Assembly: GCF_003334335.1 (NCBI RefSeq)
Contig: NZ_QOWQ01000238.1
Source: Escherichia coli
Lineage (GTDB): Bacteria; Pseudomonadota; Gammaproteobacteria; Enterobacterales; Enterobacteriaceae
Length of the DNA: 222 bases
Reading direction: 5' to 3' (one strand)
In this document: positions 1 through 222 of the stretch, in pieces
How positions within the stretch are numbered: the stretch's first letter is position 1
Layout of the letters: each line of letters begins with the position of its first letter
Made by a program: the position numbers and the translations under genes
The notes under the pieces: model-generated
What the model was told of the DNA's origin: nothing
Databases searched by the model: none
What the model saw: the letters and a program-made list of their open reading frames with translations, nothing else

Positions 1-80
1 AATAAAACAATCATCAAATACAGAATTTTCGTAGGCTGAGGGATTGCTGAAAATAATTTAGTGCGTCCTTCAATGGTCAT
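1..80 (-). CDS. Possible 5' end of a protein-coding gene running off the window (N-terminus MTIEGRTKLFSAIPQPTKILYLMIVL...); product unknown
   Basis: The reverse complement has ATG at 80-78 followed by 26 stop-free codons to the window edge. The peptide ends in a hydrophobic stretch (ILYLMIVL) compatible with a membrane segment. Against: no Shine-Dalgarno upstream (sequence before the ATG is cagcacaatctg), G at first codon position is low (4 of 26), and the frame is also open upstream of the ATG, so the start is ambiguous. A second in-frame ATG lies at 14-12. Confidence 0.2.
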   Translation of the reverse strand, partial: MTIEGRTKLFSAIPQPTKILYLMIVL

Positions 81-118
81 CAGATTGTGCTGATGTAAAC
101 AGTTAAGCACAATTTGAT
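79..118. repeat. Imperfect inverted repeat (13-bp arms, 14-nt spacer); candidate operator or RNA stem-loop
   Basis: Read directly: 84-91 ATTGTGCT is the exact reverse complement of 106-113 AGCACAAT. Pairing extends to 79-91 against 106-118 with one G/T mismatch (83 vs 114), which would be a G-U wobble in RNA. The stem is AT-rich with only 3 G-C pairs in the perfect 8-bp core. An 8-bp inverted repeat alone is not rare in AT-rich DNA, so function is uncertain. Confidence 0.4.
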
Positions 119-137
119 TATTTGACTTTCTTCTTTT

Positions 138-153
138 TGTGACTGACTTCACA
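138..153. promoter_or_regulatory. CRP-family (cAMP receptor protein) binding site with perfect core TGTGA-N6-TCACA
   Basis: Read directly: TGTGA at 138-142, 6-bp spacer CTGACT at 143-148, TCACA at 149-153, centre between 145 and 146. This matches both consensus half-sites of the established CRP motif. The 22-bp context 135-156 is tttTGTGActgactTCACAatt with AT-rich flanks. A rough estimate puts chance occurrence of both perfect half-sites at this spacing in a window of this size and composition well below 1 in 1000. Binding is not demonstrated. Confidence 0.55.
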
Positions 154-222
154 ATTAAAGATGTAACCGTATACAAATTGTTGATGAATAAAGAGACAGC
201 ATAAGTGGCAGGCCAGTCGTAA

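Follow-up and report, generated by a model that had tools for sequence, protein, structure and literature searches.

The window analyzed here, a stretch of 222 nt of Escherichia coli DNA, is most probably non-coding cis-regulatory DNA that lies upstream of eib-family genes, which encode immunoglobulin-binding adhesins, in lambda-like E. coli prophages, and the long stop-free frame on its minus strand is most probably incidental. It reads as regulatory because positions 49-208 are conserved, the core of a CRP site is invariant among the copies and positional counterparts of this core occur in two diverged loci. As we picture it, the window would constitute the distal half of an upstream region of ~680 nt that travels with eib-family genes, located where the tail-fibre module ends on the right. 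Sequence of this type has already been deposited, as non-coding DNA that precedes the genes of a known prophage adhesin class. The one mildly new point would be the conserved candidate CRP site, which keeps a constant distance to the start codon in diverged adhesin loci of prophages and offers a modest, testable lead on Eib control. More generally, a stop-free frame in AT-rich DNA, even one of ~200 codons, need not be a gene, and the gap that harbors the window was rightly left unannotated.

The whole window is 100% identical to a segment of the chromosome of E. coli S1-CAM-02-A (NZ_CP145707.1, L001 8001-8222; hereafter, the source locus). It is matched in 27 of 5,426 complete E. coli genomes, at one to five places per genome, all of them chromosomal and none under an annotated feature; no window matches were found beyond these 27 genomes. 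At the source locus, it is held by an unannotated gap of ~680 nt (681 nt) in the tail region of a lambda-like prophage. To the left of the gap is a fragment of a DUF4376 tail-fibre-assembly-like gene that ends at L001 7728, and to the right a plus-strand gene with a YadA C-terminal domain, encoding an Eib-family trimeric autotransporter, that starts at L001 8410; the adhesin ATG is located 188 nt past window position 222. The order of genes along the prophage is J, lom-like, tail fibre, DUF4376 tail-fibre-assembly-like gene, gap and YadA C-terminal domain gene, with a small hypothetical gene and then an S6 peptidase autotransporter 3' of the adhesin gene. The adhesin gene product matches the EibD structure 2xqh (E=1e-83). 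Judged by its sequence and neighbors, the window is the distal upstream region of an eib-family gene.

The same arrangement occurs in prophage P-EibA of strain ECOR-9 (AF151091), whose eibA-upstream gap is 97.2% identical to that of the source locus over 681 nt, with no indels. P-EibA also carries J, lom, tail fibre, tail-fibre-assembly-like gene, gap and eib gene, the latter followed, as at the source locus, by an orf-156-like gene and then a serine-protease autotransporter. The depositors placed no CDS in the gap, and their sole annotation there is a stem-loop (L002 3777-3814) outside the window. The record is reportedly the work of Sandt and Hill in 2000. The source locus differs from P-EibA in its Eib allele and in the presence of an IS21-family element that breaks its tail-fibre-assembly-like gene. 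This element (istA/istB, ISSso4-like) occupies L001 5183-7490, inserted into the DUF4376 gene close to its 3' end, and left behind a 138-nt DUF4376 pseudogene fragment (7591-7728), so the prophage of the source genome is probably defective.

The eib-like genes that adjoin near-identical upstream regions are mosaics (e.g., L001 8410-9726 versus L002 3918-5096). The downstream Eib allele of the source locus and EibA share 53% identity overall; their C-terminal halves are near-identical, and their N-terminal passengers differ. Among 17 copies, the eib-like signal peptide is moderately conserved (the first 90 nt are ~74% identical), and the N-terminal passenger is ~44% identical and essentially unalignable. 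This mosaic pattern fits a cassette-like swap of the passenger head between conserved flanks.

Table 1. Features of the window, with positions counted from its first nucleotide.
Feature	Position	Strand	Basis or remark
Upstream, probably non-coding region of the Eib-family adhesin gene, distal part	1..222	+	100% match to NZ_CP145707.1, neighbors, AF151091 identity
Stop-free frame of 73 codons, within the 197-codon frame at L001 7694-8284	3..221	-	Judged non-coding
17-nt motif AATACAGAATTTTCGTA	18..34	+	Second copy within the 114-116-nt insertion
11-nt unit TTCAATGGTCA	69..79	+	Tandemly duplicated in 4/17 copies (alignment)
ATG named in the preliminary description as a possible start	78..80	-	ATA in 5/17 copies
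Inverted repeat ATCAGATTGTGCT / AGCACAATTTGAT, 14 nt between arms	79..118	+	12/13 complementary
Perfect candidate CRP core TGTGACTGACTTCACA, best candidate functional element	138..153		Shuffles, 17-copy and diverged-locus conservation

The preliminary description of this DNA had singled out the minus-strand frame, and its account of the window holds. Read from window position 221, the frame is stop-free for 73 codons and yields exactly the peptide quoted, while three to nine stops fall in each of the remaining five frames. The reported near-flat composition was reproduced as well (G+C by codon position 32.9/32.9/38.4%; G at first position 16.4%). The rough estimate that such a frame would arise at well under 1% agrees with 20,000 mononucleotide shuffles, in which a given frame was fully open in 0.39% of cases; the fair chance estimate, rather than this per-frame figure, is the 2.3% of shuffles in which any of the six frames was open.

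The two signs of non-coding DNA proposed at that stage, stops just outside the window and a lack of protein homologues, fared differently. Homologues outside the locus are indeed missing (see below), but the frame stays open past both edges, running in the source genome from L001 8284 to 7694 (197 codons stop to stop) and reaching up to 252 codons in some database variants. A TGA bounds it upstream, and its other end lies inside the antisense of the DUF4376 gene. Its first 36 codons hold no ATG, GTG or TTG, the first possible start being a TTG 36 codons in. A run of 73 codons is unremarkable for the 719-nt region, where it is reached by 55% of shuffles. The 197-codon run was reached by none of 5,000 shuffles of that region (p<2e-4), which gave a longest open run of 78 +/- 19 codons and a maximum of 185. 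The earlier reading of a chance open frame in regulatory DNA is retained as to its being non-functional and regulatory, but pure chance does not suffice as a full account of its length.

Two other contributions to this length can be named, i.e., a composition bias of the strand or a decayed ancestral ORF, and either may contribute. Stop triplets number 32 on the minus strand and 48 on the plus strand, with a first-order Markov expectation of 37.8 for the minus strand. Open runs of 97-129 codons occur in other minus phases of several copies as well, which suggests a strand composition effect. The upstream stop codon is polymorphic, being TGA, TAA or TTA among the copies and W (TGG) in database variants; owing to this sense codon, three of the latter (P0001, P0002 and P0004) reach 210-252 codons when read from an ATG. 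Whichever source the length has, the conclusion that the protein is under no present constraint holds.

That conclusion draws on an alignment of 17 copies of the gap, 15 of them places in 12 complete genomes and 2 from phage records. Within the window-homologous part, an 11-bp tandem duplication is present in four copies (L009, L010, L013 and L015) and shifts the minus frame so that '...NLMTIE' is directly followed by a stop, a 2-bp deletion affects one copy and three have TTA>TAA at window position 4; altogether, 6 of the 17 copies were counted with frameshifts and stops in this part. Elsewhere in the extended frame, further indels not divisible by three occur, and nine copies carry an insertion of 114-116 nt upstream of the window, most with a stop in frame. 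Open length varies from 72 to 197 codons across the 17 copies, with variable C-terminal ends. No start with a ribosome-binding site is conserved among them: no purine-rich, Shine-Dalgarno-like motif occurs in the 15 nt (window 95-81) preceding the ATG at 80-78, and direct reading of the sequence revealed none before the TTG at 176-174 or before the upstream ATG of the database variants. Substitutions in the window number 15, of which 2 are synonymous, 12 are non-synonymous and 1 creates a stop; they are distributed 4/7/4 over the codon positions, when ~22% synonymous changes are expected without selection (48.7 synonymous and 170.3 non-synonymous sites).

Codon usage and database searches gave concordant results. 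With a model trained on the locus's own genes, the minus frame scores -0.36 bits per codon; the true frames of four real genes of the locus score +0.13 to +0.28 and their wrong frames -0.13 to -1.1. The peptide contains 1.0% D, 2.4% E and 2.9% G. No protein relatives outside the locus were found among 5.8 billion clusters or in an exhaustive HMMER pass over 1.84 billion representatives, and tblastn of the phage collection likewise returned matches limited to copies or fragments of the same locus; the protein matches that were found, all of this kind, are at least 76% identical. The longest ORF variants have no Pfam match even at E<=10, and scans of PHROGs and NCBIfam gave nothing meaningful, the best hits (E=0.33 and E=0.099) covering stretches of 22-30 residues. 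Neither the NCBI annotation of the 27 complete genomes, none of which has a feature there, nor the authors of AF151091 called the frame, whose predictions are confined to short contigs and to partial hypothetical proteins in some NCBI drafts. The diverged adhesin loci of phage GER2 and FHI_NMBU_11 have no comparable minus-strand ORF. An acquired AT-rich gene, which the preliminary description had kept as its alternative, thus finds no backing in homology, in conservation of the frame or in gene prediction, and all three favor the non-coding reading. We judge the minus frame to be incidental and predict that it makes no functional protein. It shares with long spurious ORFs the unconserved start, the lack of codon bias, the frame-breaking variation rich in non-synonymous changes and the lack of homologues, but is unusually long (197 codons) for DNA of 40% G+C.

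Among the alternatives, the one that survives best is still unlikely in our judgment. It holds that the minus frame is the decaying remnant of an ancestral, lineage-restricted orphan gene, convergent with the tail-fibre operon, ended by a minus-strand terminator and now drifting, whose DNA has been kept or co-opted for eib control. The 197-codon frame, longer than the longest run of all 5,000 shuffles, and the minus-strand terminator at L001 7753-7736 together would fit a real or former minus-strand gene and speak against our main reading. The database variants with an ATG start, the alternation of stop and sense at the upstream codon and the several independent disruptions in different copies, a pseudogene-like pattern, point in the same direction. 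A former gene should be weighed, however, against the failure to find homologues outside the locus, the lack of any residual signature in codon usage or amino acid composition and the openness of the other minus phases, which argues for strand composition instead of one former frame. Moreover, the frame of the source copy reads through the terminator hairpin, and the diverged loci lack a counterpart.

Conservation of the DNA itself favors a regulatory role for the window. Its copies are 97.9% identical on average, as against 52% for the adjacent eib-like genes over their first 390 nt. Conservation within the locus is highest at window 49-208, which includes both the inverted repeat and the CRP core; 6 of its 160 nt are variable sites, as compared to 50 in the distal 160 nt of the gap. 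The high identity among copies may stem from recent common ancestry or prophage recombination instead of purifying selection. The perfect CRP site (TGTGA-N6-TCACA) that had served as support for the initial regulatory reading is itself well supported by conservation. Its core occurs in 1 of 200 dinucleotide-preserving shuffles, and all 17 copies have it in perfect form, the sole variation being G/A at spacer position 145. CRP-like cores with one mismatch occur in phage GER2 and in FHI_NMBU_11 as well, at 276 and 261 nt, respectively, from the adhesin ATG, as compared to 264 nt here; the adhesin-upstream gaps of these two loci resemble the source gap just in the proximal ~130-170 nt. The chance of such a core at that position is ~0.001 for each diverged locus. 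We read these positional cores as a phylogenetic footprint and as the strongest evidence that the candidate CRP site is used. The window would thereby resemble E. coli CRP promoter sites in its perfect core, conserved among copies and, by position, in diverged loci.

The same data bear on a second alternative, quite unlikely in our view, by which the window is an AT-rich spacer that is similar among prophages as a result of recent recombination and carries its CRP core by coincidence. The presence of one to five copies per genome in just 27 of 5,426 genomes, indicative of recent relatives, the mosaic structure of the locus and the lack of a promoter at the classical distance from the CRP site are what such a spacer would lead one to expect. 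It does not account for the recurrence of CRP-like cores, equally far from the ATG, in two otherwise unalignable loci, or for the eightfold difference in density of variable sites between window 49-208 and the distal 160 nt within one gap.

Two further proposals place a gene on the minus strand. That the frame represents a genuine lineage-restricted gene, present or recently lost, which either arose anew from the adhesin control region or is decaying into it and which is convergent with the tail-fibre operon and ended at the terminator L001 7753-7736, is very unlikely. That it is a functional acquired AT-rich gene, e.g., for a small membrane protein antisense to the eib control region, is extremely unlikely: the length of the frame, hydrophobic stretches such as ILYLMIVLFALFLC in its translation and its prediction on short contigs and in some drafts are countered by the frameshifts and stops in 6/17 copies within the window-homologous part alone, start candidates that are unconserved and without a Shine-Dalgarno sequence, the non-synonymous excess, a codon score like that of a non-coding frame, the failure to be called in any of the 27 complete genomes, the lack of detectable relatives and the chimeric nature attributed to P0011, the sole variant with a lipoprotein signal.

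P0011, in which an N-terminal lipoprotein signal peptide is fused to the ORF, likely derives from a chimeric assembly. It is encoded on a lone 916-nt metagenome contig with 1.8x coverage (L020, ENA ERZ505436 NODE_64540) in which a mechanosensitive-channel gene, together with the beginning of a lipoprotein gene, is joined to the eib region, the junction to the eib upstream region falling at the palindromic stem-loop arm GGAATTCCGA. The mechanosensitive-channel part bears little resemblance to E. coli prophage DNA. Through this contig, the protein collection lists a 100-residue 'lipoprotein' that is misleading.

If the window is regulatory, as we favor, the geometry of promoter and CRP site can be put forward as a proposal. 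A matrix scan detected no convincing sigma-70 promoter at -41.5, -61.5 or -71.5 from the CRP site on either strand. The single hit of a simpler scan, TTGAGC-17-GATAAT at L001 8364-8392, was discarded; it would set the transcription start at a mere ~11 nt from the ATG. Three diverged loci share a -10-like box in their alignment (TATAGT, TACAGT and TACACT), just 5' of a conserved stem-loop. At the source locus, the TATAGT box (L001 8260-8265) might drive a weak promoter with a transcription start ~138 nt before the eib ATG. The CRP site would then be centered near -126, the window would span approximately -272 to -51 and the eib mRNA would have the stem-loop at L001 8269-8306 right at its 5' terminus. 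Under this proposal, cAMP-CRP would bind 138-153 and help activate eib on the plus strand from far upstream, and the inverted repeat at 79-118 could be a second protein site or a plus-strand hairpin. This differs from class I and class II CRP promoters, there being no promoter at such a distance and a predicted center near -126 instead. Distal CRP sites beyond -100 are known, e.g., that of acs P2.

The published dependence of Eib proteins on the medium is consistent with catabolite control. These proteins, EibA, C, D and E of ECOR-9 among them, reach their highest levels in static stationary cultures in glucose-free LB (PMC5450701; see also PMC4352079) and are lower in media with 1-2% glucose (PMC5450701). 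A point against our reading is that, on multicopy pGEM, eibG with 168 bp of upstream DNA sufficed for complementation (bioRxiv 10.64898/2025.12.25.695649). Such a fragment would exclude any window-homologous stretch that this eibG locus may have, and a region of this kind would then be non-essential on a multicopy vector; window matches, though, were confined to the 27 genomes. The literature outside the primary Eib papers relates Eib control to static growth, stationary phase, temperature and medium, with no mapped promoter, and our search of it retrieved no link between EibG and catabolite control. IbrA and IbrB are reported to activate eib.

Besides the CRP core, the region is rich in palindromes and repeats. 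Those pointed out in the preliminary description are borne out, with 13-nt arms at 79-91 and 106-118 and CATCAG-N6-CTGATG at 78-95. The arms of the longer repeat are invariant in all 17 copies, and a T-rich run follows at 119-137. The repeat region folds at -19.1 kcal/mol as plus-strand RNA (z=-2.2) and at -12.4 kcal/mol as minus-strand RNA (z=-1.2). The stem has 13 bp, mostly A-T or G-U, and a 14-nt loop, and the U-rich tract after it is interrupted; this hairpin was not reported by a scan for terminator patterns. It could be a plus-strand RNA hairpin that acts as a weak terminator or insulator where the tail operon is read through; alternatively, it could be a protein operator. Rfam 15 covariance models had no match at E<=1 on either strand of the 1.2 kb at L001 7500-8700.

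A canonical intrinsic terminator in minus-strand orientation is found at L001 7736-7753 (AGGGGC...GCCCCT and then a T7 run), directly 3' of the stop of the plus-strand tail-fibre-assembly-like gene; on the plus strand, the hairpin is followed by just TT. A second allele (L012 type) differs in the loop; the stem is conserved.

The 114-116-nt indel polymorphism maps between L001 7955 and 7956, ~45 nt to the left of the window, with the insertion in L003, L004 and seven more copies. The insert brings with it a copy of AATACAGAATTTTCGTA inside a perfect 7-bp inverted repeat (GCAATAC...GTATTGC); in L004, the two copies of the motif (627-643 and 803-819) are 100% identical.

Closer to the adhesin gene, a perfect stem-loop with 11-bp arms (GAAATTCCGAA...TTCGGAATTTC) lies at L001 8269-8306 on the plus strand and corresponds to the one annotated by the depositors of AF151091. 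It folds at -13.8 kcal/mol (z=-3.3), and its variable loop is the site of the upstream-stop polymorphism of the minus frame (TGA, TAA, TTA or TGG). Further downstream, CATCAGATTTTCTTTA (L001 8336-8362, plus strand) is 100% identical in three otherwise diverged adhesin-upstream regions and forms the inverted repeat CATCAGAT-N11-ATCTGATG, whose hexamers are the same as those at window 78-95. These hexamer repeats may represent a repeated operator for a regulator. A 25-codon ORF, MRAARHQIFFIYLMLSCFICIQIIL, occupies L001 8322-8399 on the plus strand, 100-177 nt beyond the right end of the window; a good AGGAG Shine-Dalgarno sequence precedes its ATG by 7 nt, its end is 10 nt away from the eib ATG and its changes among the 17 copies are mostly non-synonymous. 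FHI_NMBU_11 has a similar ORF of 22 codons, MGAEIHQIFFIHLMYFGLFVYK, and phage GER2, with no start codon, has none. The 25-codon ORF possibly encodes a leader peptide or merely overlaps a conserved DNA box.
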